From contig JBAZBR010000005.1 of the NCBI GenBank assembly GCA_041671325.1, forward strand, positions 14,184 through 78,183: a stretch of 64,000 bases of DNA, written 5' to 3'. This DNA comes from Patescibacteria group bacterium. GTDB lineage: Bacteria; Patescibacteriota; Patescibacteriia; PEXW01. This document shows, piece by piece, positions 6,988 to 50,062 of this stretch. A model generated the notes under the pieces. That model made no database searches and was not told where the DNA came from. It was given only the letters and a program-made list of their open reading frames with translations. Every line of letters begins with the position of its first letter. Within the stretch, counting starts at the first letter, position 1. The position numbers and the translations under genes are program-made.

Positions 6988-8439
6988 TTAATAAGCCCTT
7001 GCCCAAACGGCTGTTGATTGCCCAGATTTGCCGCAAACCACGCATTTTTTCTGGATCTTCGGTTGATTAAAAGGAACCACCCTTGCAGTTGCCTTGGTTG
7101 CTTCTTTGATACTGTCCTCACAGGCCGTCTGTCCGCACCAGCTCGCAATTGCAAAACCTTTTTTGACTTCAATGACTTCTTTAAACTCATCGTAGGTCTT
7201 TACTTCAAAAGTGCGGTCATGCAAATATTGGCTGGCACGGGCAAATAAAGACTTTTGGATCTGTTCCATTAAGATCCTAAGCTGGGCAGGTAATTGCTTA
7301 TTAGCTATTACCTCTTTTTGGCCATTATCTCGGCGTACAATTTTAACTTGATCATCTCGTATTTCCGCCGGACCGATCTCAAGCCGAACCGGAATGCCTT
7401 GCATTTCCCAATCGTGAAATTTGAATCCAGGCGTTACATCATCCCGATCATCGACTGTAACTGAAAACTGATCCTTTAAGTTTAAAAATAAGTTATTGCA
7501 AGCCTTTAGTACAGATTCCTTTTCTTCATTGGTTTTGTAAATGGGCACAATAACCACTTGAATTGGAGCAATTTTTGGAGGTAAAATCAAGCCAGCTTCA
7601 TCTCCATGAACCATTATCAAAGCGCCAATAATTCTGGTTGAAAGACCCCAACTTGTTTGCCATGCATAATCAATTGACTTGTCTTTGTTTTGAAAAGATA
7701 TATTAAAAGCTTCTGCTTTTGAAAAATTTTGCCCAAGGTTGTGCGAGGTTGCCGCCTGCAAAGCCTTGCCATCCGGCATCATGGCTTCACAAGAAGTCGT
7801 ATACAAAGCTCCGGCAAATTTTTGGCTGTCAGTCTTTTTACCAGTTATAACTGGAATGGCTAAGGTGTTCTGGATAAAATCGGTGTAAGCTTTAAGCGCG
7901 TCCATTGTCTGCTTGTCAGCCTCCTCCAGGGTTGCATGAGCGGTATGACCTTCTTGCCATAAAAACTCTAGGGTGCGTAAAAATGGAAAAGTTCTTTTTT
8001 CCCAGCGGATCACGTTACACCATTGATTGACTTTTAATGGCAAATCTCGCCAAGAATGCACCCATTTTGAAAACATAGAGTACATAATGGTTTCTGAAGT
8101 TGGTCGGACCACCAAGGGTTCTTCAAGTTTTTGTCCACCCCCAATAGTAACCACGGCAAGTTCAGGGCTAAAGCCTTCCACATGTTCTTTTTCGCGATGC
8201 AAAAAACTCATGGGAATAAACAATGGGAAATATGCATTACGCGTGTTCATGGCTTTTATTTTTAGATCAAACAAACGAACAATATTTTCCCAAATCGCAT
8301 AACCATTCGGCCGAATAACCATACAGCCTTTTACTGGCGCATAATCAGCTAACTGGGCAGCTTGCACGACTTCTAAGTACCAAGCTGACAAGTCTTTTTC
8401 TTTGGTATTTCTTCTTGACATGTTGTTCTCCTTTTGCAT
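6988..8439 (-). CDS. proS: Prolyl-tRNA synthetase, archaeal/eukaryotic type
   Basis: 483-aa class II aaRS. The N-terminal SAWYLEVVQAAQLADYAPVKGCMVIRPNGYAIWE is characteristic of type-3 ProRS. The C-terminal zinc-binding tail ends in Tyr (VWARAY). Confidence 0.85.
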   Translation of the reverse strand: MQKENNMSRRNTKEKDLSAWYLEVVQAAQLADYAPVKGCMVIRPNGYAIWENIVRLFDLKIKAMNTRNAYFPLFIPMSFLHREKEHVEGFSPELAVVTIGGGQKLEEPLVVRPTSETIMYSMFSKWVHSWRDLPLKVNQWCNVIRWEKRTFPFLRTLEFLWQEGHTAHATLEEADKQTMDALKAYTDFIQNTLAIPVITGKKTDSQKFAGALYTTSCEAMMPDGKALQAATSHNLGQNFSKAEAFNISFQNKDKSIDYAWQTSWGLSTRIIGALIMVHGDEAGLILPPKIAPIQVVIVPIYKTNEEKESVLKACNNLFLNLKDQFSVTVDDRDDVTPGFKFHDWEMQGIPVRLEIGPAEIRDDQVKIVRRDNGQKEVIANKQLPAQLRILMEQIQKSLFARASQYLHDRTFEVKTYDEFKEVIEVKKGFAIASWCGQTACEDSIKEATKATARVVPFNQPKIQKKCVVCGKSGQSTAVWARAY

Positions 8440-9331: not shown

Positions 9332-9994
9332 TTATTTGATGATTGCAGTTTCAAAGTTTGTTGCTCGGGTATAACGTTGCAGTAGAAGTGAAGTTTCGGC
9401 CAAATCTTCAGGAAGATGCTTTTCACCGTCAAAGGAAATGATAACCATTAAAAGGTTATTGGTTTCCTTTGTAATCATCGACCTTTCGGAATCACTGGTC
9501 GGACTGCCAAAGGGGCCTTGGGTATCGGCAAAAAGCGGCAGTTCGGCAATATTAATTAGTTCTTTGCCGATCCCTTTGTAAGTTTCCCCGGGCAAACCAA
9601 TCCGAAATTGCACAGGCGGGCGCAAAGCATCAAGGTTGTATGAACCAACAGAATGCAAGGTTTTTAGGGAAATCAAGTTGTTGATGTCAACAATCGTGTT
9701 GACTTGATACAAACCTTTCCCTTGTAAAATCCTTCTGGCCAGAGCTTCGGCCGAACCACGATACCTAGTCGGATCTTTGCCAATGGACTTATAGCCGTCT
9801 CTCAAGGCTTTGACATTCGCTTGATGCGGCAAATCTGCCAGACTCATTCTCTTCTGCATCCCAATGGTGAACTGGTTAATTTCTCTCCATAAACCGCTGT
9901 CGTTTTCAGAAACCACAACCGAGCAACAAACTGCGCCCAATACTAACCTGGGCACTCTTGTTGCGAGCTTGGAATCAATCGAAATCGCAATCAT
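9332..9994 (-). CDS. B3/4 domain-containing protein (PheT B3/4-like tRNA-binding domain, stand-alone)
   Basis: YRGSAEALARRILQGKGLYQVNTIVDINNLISLKTLHSVGSYNLD follows the conserved B3/4 pattern (SxEALxRR..KG...N..VD..N). Confidence 0.65.
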   Translation of the reverse strand: MIAISIDSKLATRVPRLVLGAVCCSVVVSENDSGLWREINQFTIGMQKRMSLADLPHQANVKALRDGYKSIGKDPTRYRGSAEALARRILQGKGLYQVNTIVDINNLISLKTLHSVGSYNLDALRPPVQFRIGLPGETYKGIGKELINIAELPLFADTQGPFGSPTSDSERSMITKETNNLLMVIISFDGEKHLPEDLAETSLLLQRYTRATNFETAIIK

Positions 9995-20987: not shown

Positions 20988-21593
20988 ATGCCTTTAAAGA
21001 TTGATTATCCTCACCCAATAACTCTTGATTATCGGATCGGCGAGGAAATATTCAATGGACTGCCTGACAGCCTGGTTGTCGAAACCAAGTACCTTATGCT
21101 CCAAGTCATGCCGGAAGAATCTGCTAATGGCCAAACTGAAACTTGGACAAAGATTATTACCCGGCCGGCCTTTGAGATCGCTTTTTTGATAATGCTCAAT
21201 GGGGAACTTCACCTCATGCTCATGCAAAAGCGAAGAAAAGCCAATGACTCGCTGTTGACCAAACTGCCGGGCGGCTATTTCTCTGATGATTTGAATTACG
21301 ATAGGCTCATGGAGGAAAAAGTTCTCCATGACACTGGCATCCGCTTTTCTTCAACTGATTTAGTTCAATTGAACTCGGTTATCGGCCATTCGGAAATTCA
21401 TACTCCAATTTCGCTTTTTTACACAACTGCTTGGGAAGTAACCGGTGCCCCCAAGGATGGCATAACCATTGAGGCTGTTCCGTTTCGGCATGCTGTTGCT
21501 CTGGCCATAAATGGCGGCATTGAAAATGACAGTAGTTTTTCAGCTATCATGCAACTATTTGTACTCCAACAATGGAAACGCTTGAAAATCTAA
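20988..21593 (+). CDS. Hypothetical protein (201 aa)
   Basis: Promoter and terminator are defined. PGGYFSDD...EEKVLHDTGI resembles a Nudix box loosely but does not fit the GX5EX7REUXEEXGU spacing. Confidence 0.35.
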   Translation: MPLKIDYPHPITLDYRIGEEIFNGLPDSLVVETKYLMLQVMPEESANGQTETWTKIITRPAFEIAFLIMLNGELHLMLMQKRRKANDSLLTKLPGGYFSDDLNYDRLMEEKVLHDTGIRFSSTDLVQLNSVIGHSEIHTPISLFYTTAWEVTGAPKDGITIEAVPFRHAVALAINGGIENDSSFSAIMQLFVLQQWKRLKI

Positions 21594-21864
21594 CGCTCTT
21601 AAGGCGGTGCAATCAGCATCGCCTTTTCTTTTTTATGGAATTTGACAGGATTTTTCCAATGCTTTATCTTTAACCGCAGAACATGAAAGACTGCAAAATC
21701 CACTTTAAAGACACTTATTACCTGAAGTGTCTATTTTTTTGGGAATTTCTCCAAAGAAGTCTAGCCATCGGCCCCGTCCACCAGACGGGGTGTTTTTTTA
21801 TACCCTCAAAAATCGGCCTTTGAAAATTAAATAACCCAAAAACCCTTTATCTTTCAGGAGGTAA

Positions 21865-22911
21865 TTGAAGATGAGTTACTATGACCCGAACTTTAACATG
21901 ATCCAATTTGGCGATTTAATGATGCAAATTGGCGAAGCGCATTTGCGCAACCGTGGCTTTTTGCGCGTGCCCACGCCGCGTATCGTGCCTGCCAGTGGTG
22001 CCTGTGAAAACGTGGACACTTTGTTCGAAGTCACGGTCAATGGCGACCCGCGTTGGTTCCATGGCGGCCAAAAACGCGCTTACATTGCCCAGACTTGCCA
22101 GCTCTACCTGGAATCCATGCTAGGGCAGGGCGGCAAGCCAAAGTTGTACTGTGTTGGACCTTCAGCCCGCGCTGAAGCCACCATAGACAATCGGCACCTG
22201 ACCGAATTCGAAATGGTGGAGATTGAATTTCGCGGCAGTTTTTCCGAACTGCTTTTGGAAATCAATTTATTCATCAATGCCTTGGTGGATGCAACCAAAA
22301 AAATTCCTGAGGCTGACCGCGCGGATTATGGGTTGCCAACTGACCTTAAGCATTTGGAAAATCACCCTCTGGAATTTCCCCGAATTCGATATGCTGATGC
22401 CATTGCCGAATTGGGATTGCCTTGGGGCGCAGACATTTCCTCGGATTTGGAAAAAGCCCTTATCGCCAATCATGGCCAGGGCCCAATTCTCATCACCCAC
22501 TATCCAAACCCCGCGAGTGAAAGGATGAAATTGCTTTTTGACCACAAGGTAGACAAACTGGCCATCAAGTTCTTCAACATGCTGCCTGATCCGGAAAACC
22601 CGGAATATGTCTTAAGCTGCGATTGCATCGTGCCCGCTGGCGGTGAGTGCGTGGGTTCGGCCGCACGGGTACACGAGCTGGCAGAATTTCAAACCCGACT
22701 TTTATCTTCGCCAATGTTTAAAAGGCTGGAAACAAAAGACGCCTACGCTAAAGAAGGCTTTGCCTGGTACTTGCATATGCTGGAAAAGTTCCCGGCCATG
22801 CCCCATGCCGGTTGCGGTTTTGGCATGTCCAGGATCTATCAGTATTTGCTAAATGAAACCGATATTACCAAAGTCGTGGTCTTGCCTTCCAACCGTGCCA
22901 GGCTTTACTAG
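21865..22911 (+). CDS. Class IIb aminoacyl-tRNA-synthetase catalytic-core paralog lacking an anticodon-binding domain (AsnA/AsnRS-like)
   Basis: 348 aa. Motif-1-like GFLRVPTPRIV. The motif 2 region YCVGPSARAEATIDNRHLTEFEMVEIEF parallels the FRAE...RHLxEFTMLE segment of AspRS/AsnRS. Motif 3 GCGFGMSRIYQYLL follows the GLGIDRL pattern. No N-terminal OB fold. Local GC looks higher than the flanks. Confidence 0.65.
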   Translation: MKMSYYDPNFNMIQFGDLMMQIGEAHLRNRGFLRVPTPRIVPASGACENVDTLFEVTVNGDPRWFHGGQKRAYIAQTCQLYLESMLGQGGKPKLYCVGPSARAEATIDNRHLTEFEMVEIEFRGSFSELLLEINLFINALVDATKKIPEADRADYGLPTDLKHLENHPLEFPRIRYADAIAELGLPWGADISSDLEKALIANHGQGPILITHYPNPASERMKLLFDHKVDKLAIKFFNMLPDPENPEYVLSCDCIVPAGGECVGSAARVHELAEFQTRLLSSPMFKRLETKDAYAKEGFAWYLHMLEKFPAMPHAGCGFGMSRIYQYLLNETDITKVVVLPSNRARLY

Positions 22912-22916
22912 ATCTT

Positions 22917-22946
22917 TTTACCAAGAAAGGGAGAATGAAATATTTC
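22917..22946. terminator. Bidirectional intrinsic terminator between convergent genes
   Basis: AAGGGAGAA..TTCTCCCTT hairpin flanked by T/A runs on both sides. Confidence 0.6.
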
Positions 22947-22953
22947 TCCCTTT

Positions 22954-25167
22954 TTAATTTGCTTTGAATCTTTTTAAAAGCAAAGAATTGCCAACCACGG
23001 AAACGCTGGATAAAGCCATGGCTAAACCCGCAAATTCCGGCCGTAAAGTCAGGCCAGCAAAAGCGAAAACTCCGGCCGCGATTGGAATGCCGATAATGTT
23101 GTAAAATAATGCCCAAAATAAATTTTGGATAATTTTCCTGAATGTTGCTTGTGAAAGTTGTAATGCTTTAATGACATCCCTTAAATCTCCTCTAACTAAG
23201 ACAATCTGACCAGCTTCCAAAGCCACATCCGTACCTGCGCTCATGGCAATACCTAGATCTGCTTGGGCCAAAGCAGGAGCATCATTAATACCATCGCCCA
23301 CAAAGGAAACTTTCATATTTTTAGCTTGGAGCTTTTTCACTTCATCAGCTTTATTTTGCGGTAAAATTTCCGCCCGAAAATCCTCAATGCCCACTTGCTT
23401 GGCAATTGCCTGGGCGGTTTTTTGATTGTCACCCGTAATCATCATGGTTTGGATATTAATTTTTTTTAAGGCGCTAATAGCGGCTTGGGTTGAAGGTTTG
23501 ACCGTGTCAGCCACACCCACAGCACCGACTAACTTATTGCCAATACCCAAAAACATAACGGTCTTGCCTTGATTTTCAATAGCGGAAATTTCGATTTCAA
23601 AATTTTCCGTTGCCAGGTTCTCTTGAACCATTAAGGCGCGATTACCAAAAACAATTTTTTCATTATTAATTTTGGCTTCAACACCTTTGCCGGTCAGGCT
23701 TTTGAAATCAGCAACCTCTGGCGGATCAAGTTTTAAATTTTTTGCCGCGGTGACGATTGCTTCAGCCAAGGGATGTTCGGAGTGTTTTTCAATTGCCGCG
23801 GCAATGCCTAGGATTTGATTTTTATCATAATCAGGACTGATGCTCAAAATGTCCGTAACGCTGGGTTTGCCCACGGTCAAAGTCCCAGTCTTATCAAAGA
23901 CCACGATGTCAATCTTCCTGGCCGCTTCCAAGGCTTCACCGCCTTTAATTAATATGCCCTGACTGGCGCCCAAGCCAGTGCCAGTGATAATGGCGGTTGG
24001 CGTCGCCAACCCCAAAGCGCACGGGCAAGCAATAACCAGGACCGCGATAAAAGCCAGCAAGCTTGGCACAAAAGACTGACCTATCAGGAAATACCAGCTG
24101 ATAAAAGTTATCAAAGCCAAGGCAATAACCGAGGGCACAAAATAAGCTGAAACTTTATCCGCAAACCTCTGGATGGGCGCTTTGCTGGCTTGGGCTTGCT
24201 CTACTAATTTTATAATTCCGGCCAATAAGGTTTCTGAACCGACTTTAGTGGCTCTGAAAATAAAACTGCCAGTAGCGTTAATGGTCGAGCCAATGACCGC
24301 ATCCCCTGCTTGCTTTTCCACAGGCAAACTTTCACCAGTGACCATGGATTCGTCAACGCTGGAATGGCCATCAGTAATAACGCCGTCCACTGGAATTTTT
24401 TGACCGGGCTTGACCCTAAGCAAATCTCCAACTTGGACTGATTCAATAGGCACTTCAATTTCCTCTCCATCCTTAATCACAATCGCGCTTTTGGCTTGGA
24501 GTTTGGCTAAGGCACGGATGGCTTCACTAGCCTTGCCTTTGGCTTTAGCTTCCAGCCATTTGCCCAAAAGTACGAAGGTTATAAGGATTGCCGCGATTTC
24601 ATAATAAAGCTCGCCTTCTACCAAACCGAGCGTAACCAATAAGGAATAAACAAATGCAGCCGAAGTGCCAATAGCGATTAAGGAATCCATGTTAGCGGTC
24701 CGGGCCCTTAATGCGCCCCAAAAACCTTTGAAGAACTGCCAGCCAGCATAAAATTCTACTGGCCCGGCCAAGAGCAATTGCCACCAAGCTCGGCCCGGCA
24801 GGTTTTCAATAGCAGGTATTACTAACATGCCCATGCTAATGACCAGCAAAGGGATTGATAAGACTAAAGAAAAAATAAACTTTTTTTTGACCTTTTGGAT
24901 TTCCTGGTTTCGCTGTTGGCTTTCTCGATCCCGAGAATCAGAGTCGCCTGGTTCAAATTTTTCCGCACCATAGCCAATTCTCCTGACTTCTTCGGCAAGC
25001 GTCGTTTCATTCACAACCTCCGGATCATATTCCACCTGGGCTCGTTCAGTGCTGACATTTACGCTGGCAATTCTTACGCCTGGAGTTTTCTTCAGAGTCA
25101 TTTCAATTAATTGGCTGCAACTGGCGCAATGCATGCCCGAGAGTGACAAGGATACTTTTTTATTCAT
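22954..25167 (-). CDS. copA: Copper-translocating P1B-type ATPase
   Basis: N-terminal HMA domain (GMHCASC), CPC transmembrane metal site, DKTGTLT phosphorylation motif, [10 protein letters not shown]. Confidence 0.9.
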
Positions 25168-25183
25168 GCTTTTAATTGCTCAA

Positions 25184-25549
25184 TTAATTAACGATAATTT
25201 TGCCTTGGTACATGCCCATATCGCAGGTAAAATTCAATTCCTCTTTGGTTTTGGGGGTAAAAATTATTTCAGTCTTTTTAAAAGCCGGCAAATCTTTACG
25301 GATTTTAAGTTTTTCAATGCTGACAAACCTGGAACACTCCTCGGATTCTTGGCGGTTAAATATCAATTTAACTGGCTTGTTTACTTGGACTTGAATAGTG
25401 TTTGGGTTATAAGCGCCGCGGATTAAAATCTCAATTTCTTGAAGACCTGAACTAGATAAGATTGCGGTTTCTTGCTTACGCTGAAACTTCAACCATAAAA
25501 CATATAGCCCAATTATAATAACGATTAAAATAATACCAATAATTTGCAT
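25184..25549 (-). CDS. Small membrane-anchored cupredoxin-like (cupredoxin_1-type) protein
   Basis: N-terminal TM helix. The C-terminal FTCDMGMYQGKIIVN parallels the C-terminal domain of the upstream fusion protein (FSCGMGMYRGEFTVVN). Confidence 0.5.
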   Translation of the reverse strand: MQIIGIILIVIIIGLYVLWLKFQRKQETAILSSSGLQEIEILIRGAYNPNTIQVQVNKPVKLIFNRQESEECSRFVSIEKLKIRKDLPAFKKTEIIFTPKTKEELNFTCDMGMYQGKIIVN

Positions 25550-25560
25550 AAATTATTCTT

Positions 25561-27000
25561 TTAATTTACGACTGTGAATTCACCCCGATACATGCCCATG
25601 CCACAACTAAAATTATAGGTCCCTGGATCGGTTGGGGTAAATTCGATGACGTTGACCCCGCCTTGCATGGCTTTACCAACATTAAGTTTTGGAATCTGCA
25701 AAAATGACCGACAGCCGCCAGCATAGCCGGCGCCATCGACTTCCCAACGCACTCGTTTGCCAGCTTTGACAGTAAAAGTAGTAGGCGAATAACCCGAAGA
25801 AGTAAAACTGGTTTTTACCACTTGGACATCCCCGTCCGCAACTACGTTTGGGTCATCAGTCTGGGAAACATTTTGGGCGACTGAAGACTTTGGAAAACTT
25901 GGCCAAGAAATTGGATGGCCTGTTATGGCCAGACCATTGCTGAAATTATAAAGGCCCAAAACTATCACTGCTGCCCCGGCAAAACGGAAAAATATTTGCC
26001 CAGCTTTGCCTTTTAAGGCATTGGAAGCCCAGCCTAAAGCTAATAAGGCTGGTGCCGTGCCCAGGGCGAAAGCAAACATAGTCATGGCGCCTGTTAGGAT
26101 GTTGCCCGTGCTCAGCACGTAGATTTGCAAAGCCTGAGTAAAACCGCAAGGCAAAAAGAAAGTCAATGCGCCAAAAATAAATGGTGAAAAATAATGATTA
26201 TGCTTTTGGTCATCCAGGACTTTCCGACCGATAAATTTTGGGGTTCTGGGCATCATGGCTTTCAACCATCGTGGGGCAATATGCAGCATATCCAAGCCCA
26301 TTACAAACATAAAGATTGCCGCCGCAATGGCAATCAAGCCAGTCACTAAGGGTGATGGCGATAAAGCCTTACCAATACCGGCCACCAAACCGCCAAGCAC
26401 GGTATAGCCGACTATGCGACCAGCCACAAAAATGCTAACTGGCAACATCCGGGCTTTGCCTGGCATAAGTTCGTAACGATCGCTAACCCTTTCGACCACG
26501 GAAAGCAACAATCCGCCCGAGACTGCAATACAGGAACTACTTGCGGCAATTAGGCCAAGAATTAAAATAGCAAAAAATCCAGTAGCCCCATTAATCTCCG
26601 TGTTAATTTTTAATAGCCCAAGCTTAGAAAGCAGAAAGCCCACTGCTAAAACTACAGCAAACGCTCCCAAAATTTGCAAAAATCTTGGTTTTTTGGCATG
26701 CGTATCTTGGCTTGGGGATTTGGCCTGTTTCCCAGCGCCAATACGGTAACCATGTTTTTTAAGTTTTTCATCGATAATTTCTCGGCTAGGCAATTGGTTG
26801 GCGCTACACAACATTTTAACCTGGCCTCGATCGGCATTGGCACTGACTTTTTGGACTCCGGGGAAATCCTTAAATTCATTTTCAATCAACAATTCACAGC
26901 TTCGGCAGTGCATGCCAGCCACATCAACAGTCAATTTAATCTGTTTTGGGTTATTAGTTTTCTGCTTTTCTGATTCAGGCATGTTTAATTCTTGAACCAT
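25561..27000 (-). CDS. HMA-domain / CcdA-DsbD-like transmembrane / cupredoxin-like fusion protein
   Basis: N-terminal GMHCRSCE metal-binding domain, a polytopic membrane core, and a C-terminal cupredoxin_1-like domain. Embedded in the csoR-copA operon. Confidence 0.55.
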   Translation of the reverse strand: MVQELNMPESEKQKTNNPKQIKLTVDVAGMHCRSCELLIENEFKDFPGVQKVSANADRGQVKMLCSANQLPSREIIDEKLKKHGYRIGAGKQAKSPSQDTHAKKPRFLQILGAFAVVLAVGFLLSKLGLLKINTEINGATGFFAILILGLIAASSSCIAVSGGLLLSVVERVSDRYELMPGKARMLPVSIFVAGRIVGYTVLGGLVAGIGKALSPSPLVTGLIAIAAAIFMFVMGLDMLHIAPRWLKAMMPRTPKFIGRKVLDDQKHNHYFSPFIFGALTFFLPCGFTQALQIYVLSTGNILTGAMTMFAFALGTAPALLALGWASNALKGKAGQIFFRFAGAAVIVLGLYNFSNGLAITGHPISWPSFPKSSVAQNVSQTDDPNVVADGDVQVVKTSFTSSGYSPTTFTVKAGKRVRWEVDGAGYAGGCRSFLQIPKLNVGKAMQGGVNVIEFTPTDPGTYNFSCGMGMYRGEFTVVN

Positions 27001-27001
27001 A

Positions 27002-27277
27002 TTATTTGTTATACAGCTTAGTTACGGTTAAAATTTCTTGGGCCATAGCCTGTTTGAGTTTTTCATTTTTTGAGGCCATGGCATTTTTAAAACAGGAATT
27101 CAAATGGCTTTCCATAAGCATTTGGTGGGCGGATTTAAGCAAGCCAATAACCGCCAAATTCTGCTGCATGATGTCAATGCAATAAGCATTTTCTTCCGCC
27201 ATTTTATTTATTTTGGCCAAATGGCTTTGGGCTTTGCGGAAATTTATCAGGATTTTATCATGATTGTGTTTTTCCAT
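27002..27277 (-). CDS. csoR: CsoR/RcnR-family metal-sensing transcriptional repressor
   Basis: 91-aa helical protein with the C-H-C ligand pattern (AYCID...ESHLNSC) of copper-sensing CsoR. Confidence 0.75.
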   Translation of the reverse strand: MEKHNHDKILINFRKAQSHLAKINKMAEENAYCIDIMQQNLAVIGLLKSAHQMLMESHLNSCFKNAMASKNEKLKQAMAQEILTVTKLYNK

Positions 27278-27422: not shown

Positions 27423-28928
27423 TTATTTCCTGGCAATGGTATAAACGTGGATGTGTTTCAAAGCCGCAGCTGCCAATTTTAACCGACTATTACTGCCGGC
27501 GTAACAAGTATAAAGGATTTCACCAGCTAAAACTCTTTCATTTAAGCGCTTTTTCAAGTGCAGACCCCCGACTTTGTCATCTGGGGCGCCAAGCGACCGA
27601 GCCAACTCATCAATAGCGCGATTATTGATTCTGACGATGCGGCCAGCATGTTTGGCGACCACGCGGAAACGCTTGGCGCCCAAAGTCACATCTTCTGAAT
27701 CCAAATTAGGATTGCCGCCTTGGCTTTTGATTATGCCTTGCATGGCTTTCCAAGCTTTGCCAGAAATCAGCTGGTCCCTGACTACGGAATAGCCCAGGCC
27801 TTTACGGGCAACACCAACCAACTCAATTAATAAGCCTGCTAAGCGCAGGGATTTTTCTTCCAAATCCCTTGGCCGATATTCTTTCTGTTGCAAGACGCGC
27901 AAAACATCCCTGGCTTCCAGGGCCGGGCCAATGCCATTGCCAATTGGCTCTTTGGCTTCAATCATGGCTACCTTGGTTTTAATGTTAAACCGCTTGCCAA
28001 TATACCTAAATTTAGCAGCCAACCTCTTGGCTGAGGCTAAGTCAGGAATTTTAGTGTTACGGCCGTAAGGCATATCAATTACCAAATGGGTAATGCCCAT
28101 AGCGACCTTTTTGGCCATTATGGAGACAATCATTTTTGAATAAGGCTCTAAAGACAGTGGGCGCGAAACCTTGATGATCCGGTCATCAGCCGGTGCCAGT
28201 TGCAAACCGCCGCCCCAGACCATGCAGGCATTATTCTTTTTAACAATCTTGAGAATTTTTTCAACTGGAAAAGTTACGGGTGCCAAAACTTCCATGGTAT
28301 CTGCCGTGCCTGAAGGGCTGGTGATGGCCCGAGATGAAGTCTTGGGTATGCAAAGGCCAGCGCTGGCAATAATCGGCACCACAATCATGGTTGTCCGGTT
28401 GCCAGCCAAACCGCCGACCGAATGCTTGTCAGCTACAATTTTTTTATTGAACCGAATTTGCTCGCCATGAGTGGCGATTGATTTGGTCAGATAGTACAAT
28501 TCTTGGTTGGTGTATTCCTTGATAAAACTGGAAGCTGCAAAATAGGTAAGTTCGGTTGTGCCAAAACGATAATTCACAATATCCCCCACAATCGCATCAA
28601 ATTCTGCTTGATTTAATTTCTTGCCCAAAAGCTTCTTTTTCAAGGCTTCAATGGAAAGCGGCCGGCCAAATGGCGAAATTTCAATTGGGGCTAAAGCCTC
28701 AATTTTATTTTCTTTCCAAACCTCCCTAAACAAGCCGATTTCTCCGGGGCGAACCCGGCGATGGGTCAAATCCGCCTGGACAATAATTTTCTTACCGTTG
28801 CTTTGCAAGACCAAGCGGTCGCCGGCGTGGATGCCAAAATTCCTGCCGTCTTCATTGCGGATGACCACCACATAAGGCTGGCCGCCAGTGCTTAAATCAA
28901 ATCTTTTAGCGCGTAAAACAAATGCCAT
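27423..28928 (-). CDS. AMP phosphorylase (archaeal-type, thymidine phosphorylase/DeoA family with N-terminal extension)
   Basis: 501 aa. KHSVGGLAGNRTTMIVVPIIASAG matches the pyrimidine-nucleoside phosphorylase glycine-rich loop. The ~80-aa N-terminal extension and overall length match archaeal AMPpase rather than a 440-aa DeoA. Confidence 0.7.
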   Translation of the reverse strand: MAFVLRAKRFDLSTGGQPYVVVIRNEDGRNFGIHAGDRLVLQSNGKKIIVQADLTHRRVRPGEIGLFREVWKENKIEALAPIEISPFGRPLSIEALKKKLLGKKLNQAEFDAIVGDIVNYRFGTTELTYFAASSFIKEYTNQELYYLTKSIATHGEQIRFNKKIVADKHSVGGLAGNRTTMIVVPIIASAGLCIPKTSSRAITSPSGTADTMEVLAPVTFPVEKILKIVKKNNACMVWGGGLQLAPADDRIIKVSRPLSLEPYSKMIVSIMAKKVAMGITHLVIDMPYGRNTKIPDLASAKRLAAKFRYIGKRFNIKTKVAMIEAKEPIGNGIGPALEARDVLRVLQQKEYRPRDLEEKSLRLAGLLIELVGVARKGLGYSVVRDQLISGKAWKAMQGIIKSQGGNPNLDSEDVTLGAKRFRVVAKHAGRIVRINNRAIDELARSLGAPDDKVGGLHLKKRLNERVLAGEILYTCYAGSNSRLKLAAAALKHIHVYTIARK

Positions 28929-49380: not shown

Positions 49381-49719
49381 TGGCTCCGCGAGTCGGACTC
49401 GGACCGACAACCTACCGGTTACATTTATCCTTATGTTTCCATAAAGCATGGACTATATCTTTACCCGTCTTCGTTGCTTCGCAACTTCGTCGGGCAGGCC
49501 CGACTAAAATTACAAAGATTCAAAGGTGGGGGTACTCCGGTATCTAGTCTCTACGGTGCCCCTGTACCGATTAATGATACAAGGTTCCCACGGTATTAGC
49601 TTATCCAAATTATTCTTGGATTTAGCTTTCACCGTTATCCCGGAATGTTCATCCCAACGTTACCGTCGGGAGCTGCGTCAAATCCACAGCCGGTTGCTCT
49701 ACCATTGAGCTATCGCGGA
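49381..49719 (-). tRNA. tRNA-Asn (anticodon GUU) interrupted by a group I intron; exons 49686-49719 and 49381-49421
   Basis: Joined exons give a 75-nt cloverleaf with acceptor TCCGCGA/TCGCGGA, D-arm GCTCAATGGTAGAGC, anticodon stem ACCGG/CCGGT, loop CUGU|UAA, T-arm GTCGG-TCCGAGT-CCGAC, and CCA encoded. Confidence 0.75.
49422..49685 (-). ncRNA. Group I self-splicing intron (IC3-like) in the tRNA-Asn anticodon loop
   Basis: 264 nt. The 5' exon ends in U. The internal guide GCAGC at intron nt 10-14 pairs with exon GCUGU, giving a U-G wobble at the splice site. The intron ends in G. The core GUAGAGACUAGAUACCGGAGUACCCCCACCU resembles the P7/P3 core of the Azoarcus and Anabaena tRNA introns (GUAGAGACUAGACGGCACCCACCU), as recalled. 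Confidence 0.7.
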
Positions 49720-49750
49720 ACAATAATATTAATTATTTTGTATGGAAATA

Positions 49751-50062
49751 TTACTTACTTTTGCTTTTTTTGGCAAGTTTACTGTGTATTTCTCTATGGC
49801 AATTTGCGCAAACTAACTGGCATTTATCTAATTCGTTTTTGACCTTTTGCCAACTCCGAGTATAACCTTTTTCGGATATACCAAACTTTTTTTCATGAAT
49901 ATGGTGAAACTCTAAAGCTTCTTGGCATTTAGCATACCCACATATTTCGCATTTCGAACCTTTTAACTCCCTTGCTAGGTTTCTTACTTTGATCCTTCGT
50001 TTCTTGACTGCTTCAATCAAGTACTTTCTTCGATCAATGTAGTTGCGCTTTTCTTTCGGCAT
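49751..50062 (-). CDS. HNH endonuclease (103 aa)
   Basis: CEICGY...LEFHHI...CANCHREIH, the Cys4 zinc and HNH catalytic motif. Its stop lies 31 nt upstream of the intron-containing tRNA on the same strand. Confidence 0.75.
   Translation of the reverse strand: MPKEKRNYIDRRKYLIEAVKKRRIKVRNLARELKGSKCEICGYAKCQEALEFHHIHEKKFGISEKGYTRSWQKVKNELDKCQLVCANCHREIHSKLAKKSKSK

Follow-up and report, generated by a model that had tools for sequence, protein, structure and literature searches.

A stand-alone asparaginyl-tRNA synthetase-like core from Patescibacteria and the association of its family with pyrimidine biosynthesis genes

The gene and its surroundings

The window analysed here (the whole 64-kb stretch of patescibacterial DNA) carries a gene for a stand-alone protein of the class II aminoacyl-tRNA synthetase (aaRS) type, which is preceded by a leader with its own predicted promoter and is followed by the convergent gene copA (Table 1). 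An earlier note on this DNA had described the product as a 348-aa protein read from the TTG at 21865. The ORF itself (21865..22911, + strand) is present, but the TTG is probably not the start; the ATG at 21871 is the likelier one, since it sits 9 nt past an AGGAGG, the resulting 346-aa protein is identical to a database entry (P0001) and homologues begin at the same residue.

Table 1. Coordinates of the features described in the text, numbered from the first letter of the window.
Feature	Position	Strand	Basis or remark
Intrinsic terminator of the upstream 201-aa ORF, outside the regulatory leader	21601..21635	+	ten-pair stem, then T-run
Sigma-70-like promoter TTGACA-17-TATCTT for leader and gene	21642..21670	+	10/12 consensus positions
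Leader ORF, 46 codons, MKDCKIHFKDTYYLKCLFFWEFLQRSLAIGPVHQTGCFFIPSKIGL	21683..21823	+	translation; spans both attenuator hairpins
Putative attenuator hairpin 1 with U7 run, within leader ORF	21709..21741	+	hairpin scan
Putative attenuator hairpin 2 (GC-rich) with U7 run, within leader ORF	21771..21800	+	hairpin scan
Shine-Dalgarno AGGAGG of the main gene	21856..21861	+	read directly from sequence
Main gene, KFFNM-family core, 346 aa from ATG	21871..22911	+	sequence, family, model, tree, context
Hairpin terminator between the main gene and convergent copA	22924..22955	.	twelve-pair stem

The gene is indeed flanked by terminators, as the note had stated, with hairpins upstream and another after the stop codon, where copA (22954-25167, - strand) encodes a P-type ATPase with HMA and E1-E2_ATPase domains. 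The three consecutive upstream terminators that it reported are likewise present as hairpins, but they do not form one block: the first, which begins 8 nt after the stop codon of a 201-aa ORF (20988-21593), ends that upstream gene, and the other two lie in the translated leader. The 201-aa ORF gave no Pfam or NCBIfam match, and its resemblance to Nudix proteins is faint (E 0.09); as it also adjoins the core gene in this genome alone, it was rejected as a functional partner.

The main gene is GC-richer than its neighbours, as had been noted (GC 0.503, z 1.9; GC3 0.573, z 2.2, rank 1 of the 59 ORFs in the window). This mild GC3 excess lends some weak support to the horizontal acquisition proposed earlier, but it is confounded by strand (four of the six GC-richest window ORFs lie on the + strand, though few window ORFs do), the close relatives of the protein are all patescibacterial and the leader is conserved with them. 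Transfer from a foreign source was therefore discarded, and relocation within the lineage fits better, given the Patescibacteria-only close relatives and the conserved leader.

An intact catalytic core in a family of its own

The window protein is an intact class IIb aaRS catalytic core without an anticodon-binding domain, and in this respect the earlier description stands. Class II motifs 1-3 are intact, with their ATP-binding Arg residues, and the two strings quoted for their AspRS/AsnRS flavour, ARAEATIDNRHLTEFEMVEIEF and GCGFGMSRIYQ, are both found in the translation. The only Pfam match is PF00152 (tRNA-synt_2; E 1.2e-33, profile positions 28-307 of 308), and an AlphaFold2 model (pLDDT 92.6) was obtained; Pfam and structure matches together return the class II aaRS fold only. 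Pfam detected no OB/tRNA_anti-codon domain in the protein, no OB domain coding was found in the 270 bp upstream and no OB-fold ORF was found near the gene. The ATP-grasp synthetase domains of carbamoyl-phosphate synthetase (CPS) were not found in the window protein either.

Residues R100/E102 of motif 2 and G314-G316-G318-R321 of motif 3 do not vary in the family alignment. In the CPR and 'NY' subfamilies, this invariance covers the motif 2 Arg and Glu, the adenine-stacking Phe, the Mg-binding Glu and the motif 3 Arg, together with the AsnRS pocket residues E46, Q74, Q77, E117 and R266; the roles of these residues are well established in class II aaRS. Across more than 40 divergent sequences all ATP/Mg2+ catalytic residues are invariant, which favours catalysis. 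This argues against a non-catalytic regulatory subunit that would sense Asn or Asp on behalf of PyrD, PyrE or PyrB. Such a role has a precedent in HisZ, a HisRS paralogue without an anticodon domain that regulates ATP-phosphoribosyltransferase and thus serves a nucleotide-related enzyme, and PRTase-like domains are fused to, or lie beside, the core at one locus (L065). HisZ is, however, derived from HisRS and catalytically degenerate, and we regard the regulatory role as highly improbable for the present protein.

The motif-2 (tRNA-acceptor) loop has a mean charge of -1.2 in the family, compared with +1.1 in AsnRS. The acidic loop and the absent anticodon domain disfavour aminoacylation of tRNA-Asn, and, judged from its sequence, the window protein almost certainly does not charge tRNA.

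The protein carries all the motifs of what we term the KFFNM family of stand-alone AsnRS-like cores, defined by a length of 300-370 aa, the signature G[AS]CE..TLF / QTxQL / KFFNM / GE..G.A.R (also given as GACEN..TLF / QTxQL / KFFNM / GE..G.A.R) and a position in the tree apart from AsnRS. The family is large, occurs in Patescibacteria and on archaeal-looking contigs, and is labelled 'amino acid--tRNA ligase-related protein' by NCBI. In the family tree all truncated cores fall in one clade, separate from full-length AsnRS, and the window protein nests in its CPR sub-clade; the KFFNM family is monophyletic, and AsnRS lies outside it. The core shares motifs 1-3 with AsnRS (class IIb; P. horikoshii 1x54, T. 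thermophilus 5zg8/9sh8), as well as an Asn-type pocket, in which Glu and Arg occupy the positions of AsnRS Glu228 and Arg364 and the Lys typical of AspRS is absent. It differs in having neither the OB domain nor a basic motif-2 loop, and in reading KFFNM for K.FYM, QT.Q for QS.Q, GSAAR for GGSQR and HAGCG for H.GFG.

The best NCBIfam matches of the window protein are AsnRS equivalog models, all under their cut-offs (NF003037, 128.5 bits vs 414; TIGR00457, 107.2 bits vs 342.6). These matches, together with the presence of gatB upstream of the core gene in 17 of 61 loci examined (at 1.7-4.4 kb), could be taken to indicate a genuine AsnRS or AspRS that lost its end to an assembly or frameshift error, or that works with a tRNA-binding domain provided in trans (for example GatB/YqeY). 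The distance from the cut-offs, the acidic loop, the separate clade and the missing OB-fold ORF all speak against this, and we give it almost no credence. The frameshifted or mis-assembled AsnRS with an anticodon domain encoded upstream, which had been named earlier as the case that would overturn the stand-alone reading, is ruled out, because the same 330-370-aa architecture is repeated in hundreds of independent assemblies and the DNA upstream is promoter and leader, not coding sequence. A GatB or transamidosome link was also rejected: gatB was not found in the window and, where it occurs, it is kept apart from the core gene by a terminator, then by the promoter and leader of the core gene. 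We treat the proximity of gatB as probable conserved synteny beside an ancestral pyr locus (as in L012, below), not as an operon.

The earlier note had offered either an AsnA-type asparagine synthetase or a ligase acting on something other than tRNA. The second part, no charging of tRNA, is likely to hold, whereas the first agrees poorly with the curated models. An AsnA-type enzyme would convert Asp, NH3 and ATP to Asn, AMP and PPi, and could provide free Asn to a reduced genome. The conserved Asn/Asp-pocket residues are compatible with this activity, as is the frequency of gatB as an upstream neighbour (although that is better seen as synteny), and all the characterised truncated AsnRS relatives that we know of are amidating (AsnA-type) enzymes. 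Truncated relatives that have been studied are, among others, archaeal asparagine synthetase A (PDB 3p8t), which forms Asn, and SlgZ. The latter acts in tetramic-acid biosynthesis (PMC5357945), and is set beside the KFFNM family by its described role, not by sequence. The archaeal-type AsnA models (AS-AR; NCBIfam PRK06462), however, score the window protein at only 48.6, 45.5, 38.8 and 32.7 bits vs cut-offs of 309-389, bacterial AsnA (PF03590) gave no match at E<=1, no archaeal AsnA (AS-AR) chain appears among the PDB sequence matches at E<=1e-3, and a tblastn search with E. coli AsnA found nothing in any KFFNM-family locus. Identity to archaeal AsnA (3p8t) and bacterial AsnA (11as) is only 16-19%, and the family has its own clade and signature. 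The model for EpmA/GenX (TIGR00462), the EF-P lysyl ligase and, like HisZ and SlgZ, an aaRS paralogue with a task outside translation, is similarly distant (21.9 bits vs 286.9).

A leader with tandem terminators

Only a few nt separate the ATG of the leader ORF from the predicted start of transcription. At L056, L003, L007, L014 and L012 a TTGAC(A/C) box precedes a conserved ATG at this same distance (39-41 nt), and a script identified ORFs of 32-52 codons at the equivalent position in six leaders (per-leader shuffle P 0.03-0.2, with a product of ~1e-7 if the leaders are taken as independent); L013, read by eye, provides a seventh. Among 59 CPR loci scanned, 10 have a leader with an ORF through the first hairpin upstream of the core gene or of a pyrD-core pair. 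The tandem hairpin pair after TTGAC occurs once in the window, and of the 15 tandem leaders detected across 908 kb of related loci, 12 directly precede a family member or pyrD-core; the same type of leader also stands in front of pyrB at L012. This layout of promoter, ATG and ORF through two terminators is conserved and nearly specific to the KFFNM family.

No T-box or other riboswitch matched the 270-bp leader at the Rfam gathering score, and only noise was returned at E<=10. The best match, the PyrR site RF00515, scored 20 bits (gathering score 54; E 1.6), and its alignment consists for the most part of the terminators; a T-box or PyrR-binding leader RNA was rejected on these scores. The leader ORF lacks Asn/Asp codon runs.

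Attenuation at E. coli pyrBI is a well-established mechanism. Like the pyrBI (and pyrE) attenuator, with its short leader ORF running through a rho-independent U-rich terminator before a pyrimidine-related gene, the window leader combines an ORF and an overlapping U-rich intrinsic terminator in front of the gene, which is the structural hallmark of this attenuator type. It differs in having two tandem terminators and an ATG that lies within a few nt of the predicted start of transcription and has no Shine-Dalgarno sequence, and the two share no sequence similarity. By this analogy we read the leader as a putative pyrBI-like, UTP-sensing attenuator; to our knowledge, it would be the first attenuator of its kind described in Patescibacteria.

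Pyrimidine genes around the family and a candidate role

What the earlier note missed is the consistent link of the family to pyrimidine biosynthesis genes. A context census of 148 loci carrying a KFFNM-family gene, scanned over +/-10 kb, found pyrD in 37 (in about 25 of which it is fused to the core or no more than 100 nt away), pyrE in 28, pyrF in 23, pyrC in 7, pyrB in 4, pyrI in 2 and pyrR in 1, and carB in none of the 148 within that distance. Five loci have pyrG close to the core gene; the CarA-like matches nearby proved to be CTP synthase and GMP synthase, and were rejected as CarA. At the locus of a 62%-identical protein (L012), the order is core, pyrB, pyrI, pyrD, pyrC, pyrE, pyrF, OTCase; elsewhere it is pyrR-pyrB-pyrC-core (L027), pyrC-[core-MGS]-pyrD-pyrE (L072) or core-pyrB-pyrI (L148). 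In these four gene orders the core takes the slot of pyrAA/pyrAB in Bacillus-type pyr operons; it stands in front of pyrB or is flanked by pyrC and pyrD. Membership of pyr operons holds for the KFFNM family across distant lineages, and the tie to pyr genes, whether embedded or fused, spans two domains of life. We found nothing in the full-text literature linking the family to pyrimidine synthesis.

The fusions add to this picture. Fusion of the core to a C-terminal allosteric domain of the CarB type (MGS-like) was seen at 32 loci; the matches of this domain are to E. coli CarB 931-1042 (E 6.5e-11), the CPS1 allosteric domain (E 1e-6), MgsA (1.5e-4) and PurH (0.01). On inspection of the tail consensus, the residues at the sites that we take to be the UMP/IMP phosphate ligands of CarB appear conserved. 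One fusion consists of core + MGS (P0148), another of core + MGS + DHO_dh (P0203) and a third of core + MGS + DHO_dh + PRTase (P0152), in a locus that continues with pyrE and pyrF. The core thus resembles CarB/PyrAB in gene position and in the allosteric domain of its relatives, but its catalytic fold is class II aaRS, not ATP-grasp, and its chemistry is predicted to be AMP-forming, not ADP-forming. The window protein itself differs from these relatives in ending at residue 346 without an MGS domain.

The AsnA reading leaves the DHODH and CPS-type allosteric fusions unexplained, as well as the adjacency to pyrD/E/F/B/C and a pyr-type leader free of Asn/Asp codon runs, and we know of no AsnA described in a pyr operon or with such an allosteric fusion. 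The window copy and most CPR copies do lack an adjoining pyr gene, as that reading would expect; on balance we think it unlikely. From its sequence and the context of its family, the product of the window gene is probably not an asparagine synthetase but a hitherto undescribed, adenylate-forming enzyme that takes part in pyrimidine synthesis.

As the earlier note held, the substrate cannot be called from sequence alone. Our preferred proposal, which we advance tentatively and with slightly more doubt than conviction, is that the KFFNM protein is a tRNA-independent adenylating enzyme that stands in for CPS and catalyses the regulated first step towards the pyrimidine ring. In this proposal, a ligase descended from AsnRS would bind Asn (or Asp) in its AsnRS-type pocket and spend ATP to form an acyl- or carbamoyl-adenylate, with which either ammonia or the amide nitrogen of the substrate itself would then react. 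PyrB/PyrC/PyrD would thereby receive N-carbamoyl-aspartate, dihydroorotate or an equivalent donor of the carbamoyl group. In this organism, expression would be controlled at the two U-rich terminators, by attenuation that is coupled to translation and responds to UTP, and in relatives of the window protein the fused allosteric domain would act as the regulator. A more specific version, which must be called speculative and rather doubtful, has Asn bound, CO2 added to its alpha-amine, the carbamate adenylated and the ring closed by the side-chain amide, to give dihydroorotate in one ATP-dependent step. Carbamate adenylation of this kind may be likened to the chemistry of TsaC or dethiobiotin synthetase.

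Several observations count against an entry-step enzyme. The 64-kb window contains no pyr gene, about 45 of 55 CPR loci have none within 10 kb of the core and, among the matches to PyrD-like proteins (of the type associated with the family) and to PyrF, none was assigned to the organism's 618-kb contig. We know of no precedent for carbamoyl phosphate formation in class II aaRS chemistry. A direct reaction from Asn or Asp to the ring would be partly redundant with the PyrB and PyrC beside the core at L012 and L027, where PyrB, PyrI and PyrC are canonical with intact catalytic motifs and PyrC retains its metal ligands; the same canonical neighbours weaken the case for the core as a replacement of PyrC or PyrB. 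In Thermococcus lacking CPS, OTCase has been reported to supply carbamoyl phosphate from citrulline (PMC13260591). By analogy, the terminal OTCase of L012 could itself make carbamoyl phosphate in this way, in which case the core need not act as a CPS substitute.

The link to pyrD is by far the tightest, overlapping or adjacent in the loci counted above in addition to the fusions, and a divergent, catalytically intact subgroup of DHODH-like proteins occurs almost only on contigs that also carry a KFFNM gene. Both observations would suit a DHODH-coupled step, such as an ATP-driven cyclisation of N-carbamoyl-aspartate to dihydroorotate, in which the beta-carboxylate would be adenylated, the ring closed, PyrC bypassed or reinforced and the product passed to the adjacent PyrD. 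The pocket is also larger than that of AsnRS beside the Glu/Arg pair (Y->N in KFFNM, GGSQR -> GSAAR), and might fit a ureido group. At L027, L040 and L045, however, the core directly adjoins an apparently active PyrC, and the pair would waste ATP in a cycle. An enzyme of the third step would also not be expected to carry an allosteric domain of the CPS type, and a source of carbamoyl phosphate would still be required. We consider the general idea of such a step, and this mechanistic version of it, quite unlikely.

De novo pyrimidine synthesis is usually seen as a fixed six-step pathway that starts at CPS. In the KFFNM family, a widespread paralogue of tRNA synthetases is found at the position of the CPS genes, bears the allosteric domain of CPS and has fusions to DHODH. 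If the proposed entry-step role is true, a core pathway would begin with a non-orthologous replacement or with a shortcut, either of them new, and an aaRS-derived enzyme would have a new metabolic role. Hundreds of proteins with the misleading labels 'asparaginyl-tRNA synthetase' or 'tRNA ligase-related' would be due for correction, and there would be a bearing on the nucleotide supply of ultra-small CPR and DPANN cells and on their supposed dependence on hosts. In the more specific one-step version from Asn to dihydroorotate, the core with PyrD, PyrE and PyrF would make up a full pathway of four enzymes leading from Asn to UMP in reduced CPR/DPANN genomes, controlled by UTP attenuation or by a recycled CPS allosteric domain.

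The AsnRS-derived core

Among about 5.8 billion proteins, 340 relatives of the window protein (X) were found, and a member of the family is present in 55 species-representative genomes. The matches listed are 300-395 aa long and share the same single domain, which bears out the earlier note's description of a truncated AsnRS-type core; all those with a taxon label are from Patescibacteria and are named 'amino acid--tRNA ligase-related protein'. When 1.84 billion cluster representatives were searched with a profile, the matches formed a continuum of stand-alone cores 300-370 aa long, with full-length AsnRS (420-470 aa) only lower in the ranking. Nor does X nest inside bona fide AsnRS: motif inspection and a neighbour-joining tree place all truncated cores in one separate clade, with the signature G[AS]CEN..TLF, QTxQL.LE, KFFNM, GE..G[SA]A.R and HAG[CY]G.G..R, whereas AsnRS has K.FYM and GEIIGGSQR in place of the third and fourth motifs. 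Judged by its sequence, the window protein is neither an artefact nor an AsnRS. A full-length AsnRS with an N-terminal B3_4 domain (P0230) occurs outside the window.

In both the CPR subfamily, to which the window protein belongs, and a distant ('NY') subfamily (alignments A1 and A3), the motif 2 Arg and Glu, the adenine-stacking Phe, the GE Glu and the motif 3 Arg are invariant, as is the AsnRS amino-acid pocket (E46, Q74, Q77, E117 and R266); the functions that we give to these residues are those established from class II aaRS structures. The pocket is Asn-like, because the E117 position holds Glu as in AsnRS (AspRS has Asp there) and Leu stands where AspRS has Lys. Alternatively, Asp might be bound flipped, in an AsnA-like orientation. 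That X is a plain AsnA-type Asn synthetase we consider unlikely. Beside the Glu/Arg pair, the residues of X are smaller than those of AsnRS (Tyr to Asn, Ser-Gln to Ala-Ala), so the ligand may be slightly larger. In aaRSs, the motif-2 loop touches the tRNA acceptor end. The mean charge of this loop is -1.2 in the X family but +1.1 in AsnRS, and in one X subfamily it reads EEEED. Because of this acidic loop and the absent anticodon domain, tRNA charging by X is unlikely, and so is tRNA binding. X, which is likely to be an enzyme, is an intact adenylating core that descends from AsnRS and lacks features for binding tRNA.

Pyrimidine gene context and the fused allosteric tail

The earliest clue was pyrD immediately upstream of X in four CPR loci, together with a PF01180+PF00152 protein. 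Pyr genes were counted by iterated profile searches in 148 loci with the X family (55 from GTDB, 80 metagenomic loci of the NY subfamily, loci from protein look-up and the window). PyrD is present in 37 of these, and in about 25 of the 37 it lies at most 100 nt from X on its own strand, often overlapping the stop codon, or is fused to X. PyrE (28/148), pyrF (23/148), pyrC (seven loci, five of them adjacent), pyrB (four), pyrI (two) and pyrR (one) also occur; carB was found in none of the 148 within +/-10 kb of X. Six CarA-like matches near X were CTP synthase and GMP synthase. Independent Pfam neighbour censuses concur with these counts: DHO_dh (PyrD) is the commonest family beside the NY subfamily (16/118 ORFs), and the CPR subfamily is most often flanked by GatB, DHO_dh, Tmk and DHOase-type amidohydrolases. 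At least two of pyrD, pyrE and pyrF are present in 22 loci, only four of which also have pyrB or pyrC. Most CPR copies of X do not adjoin pyr genes, and none was found in the 64-kb window. X is a member of the pyr gene neighbourhood both in bacteria and on contigs that look archaeal, where Topo VI and DUF5789 are among the neighbours; the taxonomy of the NY subfamily is putative. PyrF of Woesearchaeota shares 52-57% identity with its CPR counterpart.

Gene order is informative here. In a Patescibacteria MAG (L012) whose X protein is 62% identical to that of the window, gatB, a methyltransferase gene and X are followed by pyrB-pyrI-pyrD-(102 aa)-pyrC-pyrE-pyrF-OTCase, all above NCBIfam or Pfam thresholds. 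Other loci read pyrR-pyrB-pyrC-X (L027, where PyrC keeps the DHOase metal-binding motifs), pyrC-[X-MGS]-pyrD-pyrE (L072; MGS, MGS-like allosteric domain) and X-pyrB-pyrI (L148). The Bacillus-type operon runs pyrB-pyrC-pyrAA-pyrAB-pyrK-pyrD-pyrF-pyrE; set against this order, X or X-MGS fills the carbamoyl-phosphate synthetase (CPS) slot.

The profile search also recovered natural fusions of the core with MGS, with MGS and DHO_dh, and with MGS-like, DHO_dh and PRTase domains (1134 aa, with pyrE and pyrF following in its locus). The X-MGS tail hits human CPS1 in its MGS-like allosteric domain (E 1e-6), and a profile of 32 tails matches E. coli CarB 931-1042 at E 6.5e-11, methylglyoxal synthase at 1.5e-4 and PurH at 0.01. 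By inspection, K954, T974, T977, K993 and N1015 of CarB, which we take to be the UMP/IMP phosphate ligands, appear conserved in the tail consensus. These matches identify the tail as an allosteric domain of CPS type; such a nucleotide-sensing module is expected on a flux-controlling first step. The window protein does not have the tail.

Four Kerfeldbacteria-type loci (L004, L008, L009 and L010) carry beside X a divergent DHODH-like protein with two insertions (160 bits; cut-off 269) that retains the catalytic Cys, Lys and Asn residues of class 1; nearly all of its close homologues are on contigs also bearing X. In the cultured Firmicute Psychrobacillus sp. PGGUH221 (L069, WP_375220472.1), X adjoins a DHOase-like amidohydrolase in a biosynthetic-looking (secondary-metabolite-like) cluster near a phage integrase, with epimerase, dethiobiotin-synthetase-like AAA_26, aminotransferase, NUDIX, ATP-grasp and PEP-utilizer genes. 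Given this member, the family may be functionally non-uniform.

The leader and setting of the window gene

Of the three consecutive terminators reported in the earlier note, all three hairpins are present, but not as one block: the first closes the upstream ORF and the other two lie within a leader ORF. A like leader precedes X homologues at L056, L003, L007, L014 and L012 (by script) and L013 (by eye). In the five scripted cases, the -35-to-ATG spacing is 39-41 nt and ORFs of 32-52 codons cross terminator 1 and end inside or past terminator 2. Shuffle P per leader was 0.03-0.2; multiplied over the six leaders found by script, including that of the window, these values give ~1e-7 if the leaders are independent, which homologous leaders are not fully. 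The CPR loci (908 kb) contain 15 'TTGAC plus tandem terminator' leaders, of which 12 are directly upstream of X or pyrD-X, distant-subfamily cases included; the single occurrence in the window is at X. The leader peptides contain no Asn or Asp codon runs, and the X leader matched no known RNA family. It is built like the E. coli pyrBI attenuator, in which low UTP slows transcription of the U-tract and the leader-translating ribosome then suppresses the terminator; by analogy, we infer that the X leader works in the same way.

X has the highest GC3 of the 59 window ORFs (z 2.2), and is GC-richer than its neighbours, as previously described. The horizontal acquisition proposed with it seems doubtful: the close relatives and leader are all Patescibacterial, and four of the six GC-richest ORFs are on the + strand, which holds few window ORFs. 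The synteny around X, where gatB is missing, the 201-aa neighbour is unique and the genes form a + strand islet, suggests a move inside the lineage rather than foreign origin. In two public assemblies of this genome a contig ends ~100 bp upstream of the 201-aa ORF.

Features of the window and of other loci with X
Feature	Location	Remarks
ProRS	window 6988-8439 (-)
B3_4 protein	window 9332-9994 (-)	stand-alone PheRS-beta editing-type domain, beside ProRS
516-aa ORF	window 10040-11590 (-)	no Pfam match
tRNA-Met (CAT) pair	window 13363-13439, 13640-13714 (-)	200 bp apart, tRNA-Leu nearby
201-aa ORF	window 20988-21593 (+)	upstream of X, in this genome only; no Pfam or NCBIfam match; faint Nudix hydrolase 1 resemblance (E 0.09)
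Hairpin 1	window 21601-21635	ends 201-aa ORF
Promoter	window 21642-21670	TTGACA-17-TATCTT, after hairpin 1
Leader ATG	window 21683	41 nt after -35 box start
Leader ORF	window 21683-21823	46 codons; passes hairpin 2 + U7 and hairpin 3 + U7
X	window 21871-22911 (+)	346 aa
Copper-handling cluster	window 22954-27277 (-)	convergent with X; CopA-type P-type ATPase, cupredoxin, HMA+DsbD+cupredoxin membrane protein, CsoR-type metal repressor
AMP / pyrimidine-nucleoside phosphorylase-like gene	window 27423-28928 (-)	Glycos_transf_3 + PYNP_C; with the L040 gene, part of a CPR-typical nucleotide-salvage route
Group I catalytic intron	window 49429-49744 (-)	directly downstream of 103-aa ORF; 52.3 bits, gathering score 50 (Rfam)
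103-aa ORF	window 49751-50062 (-)	HNH-endonuclease-like Cys/His motifs
DHODH-like gene	L010 9069-9947	Kerfeldbacteria-type
Second leader	L012, promoter 11127, ATG 11165	between X and pyrB; 43-codon ORF across two U-run hairpins
OTCase	L012 17406-18344	ends pyr cluster; TIGR00658, 282 bits
IF-2B-family gene	L040 3648-4682	ribose-1,5-bisphosphate isomerase-like, near X

Candidate reactions

Because all other pyr functions are found beside X and carB never is within +/-10 kb, and because X takes up the CPS position with an allosteric domain inherited from CPS, we tentatively favour the reading in which X catalyses the regulated entry into pyrimidine ring synthesis, standing in for CPS. In one form of this proposal, X would give PyrB a carbamoyl donor. 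This agrees with every context, but sits awkwardly with the chemistry of class II aaRSs and with a pocket of Asn type; the L012 OTCase could make carbamoyl phosphate from citrulline, and by analogy is a possible source of it in a CPS-less genome. Carbamoyl phosphate from citrulline has been reported in CPS-less Thermococcus (PMC13260591). Conversion of Asp, CO2 and NH3 to carbamoyl-aspartate would be AsnA-like chemistry, although the Glu in the pocket speaks against binding of a side-chain carboxylate. An X that formed dihydroorotate from Asn and CO2 would account for the Asn pocket, the tight PyrD coupling, first-step regulation and the recurring minimal X-D-E-F clusters, with no futile cycle with PyrC, but would in part duplicate PyrB and PyrC where these are present too. 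ATP-driven cyclisation of carbamoyl-aspartate, finally, would be futile beside an adjacent PyrC. That X catalyses another DHODH-coupled step seems to us more doubtful again than a plain Asn synthetase, and minor options make up the remainder.

Roles in metabolism are already known for aaRS paralogues (AsnA/AS-AR, HisZ, EpmA and SlgZ; PMC5357945). The full-text literature searched contained no AsnRS paralogue of pyr operons that has a CPS allosteric domain and is fused to DHODH, and the X family offers a realistic chance of a new reaction.
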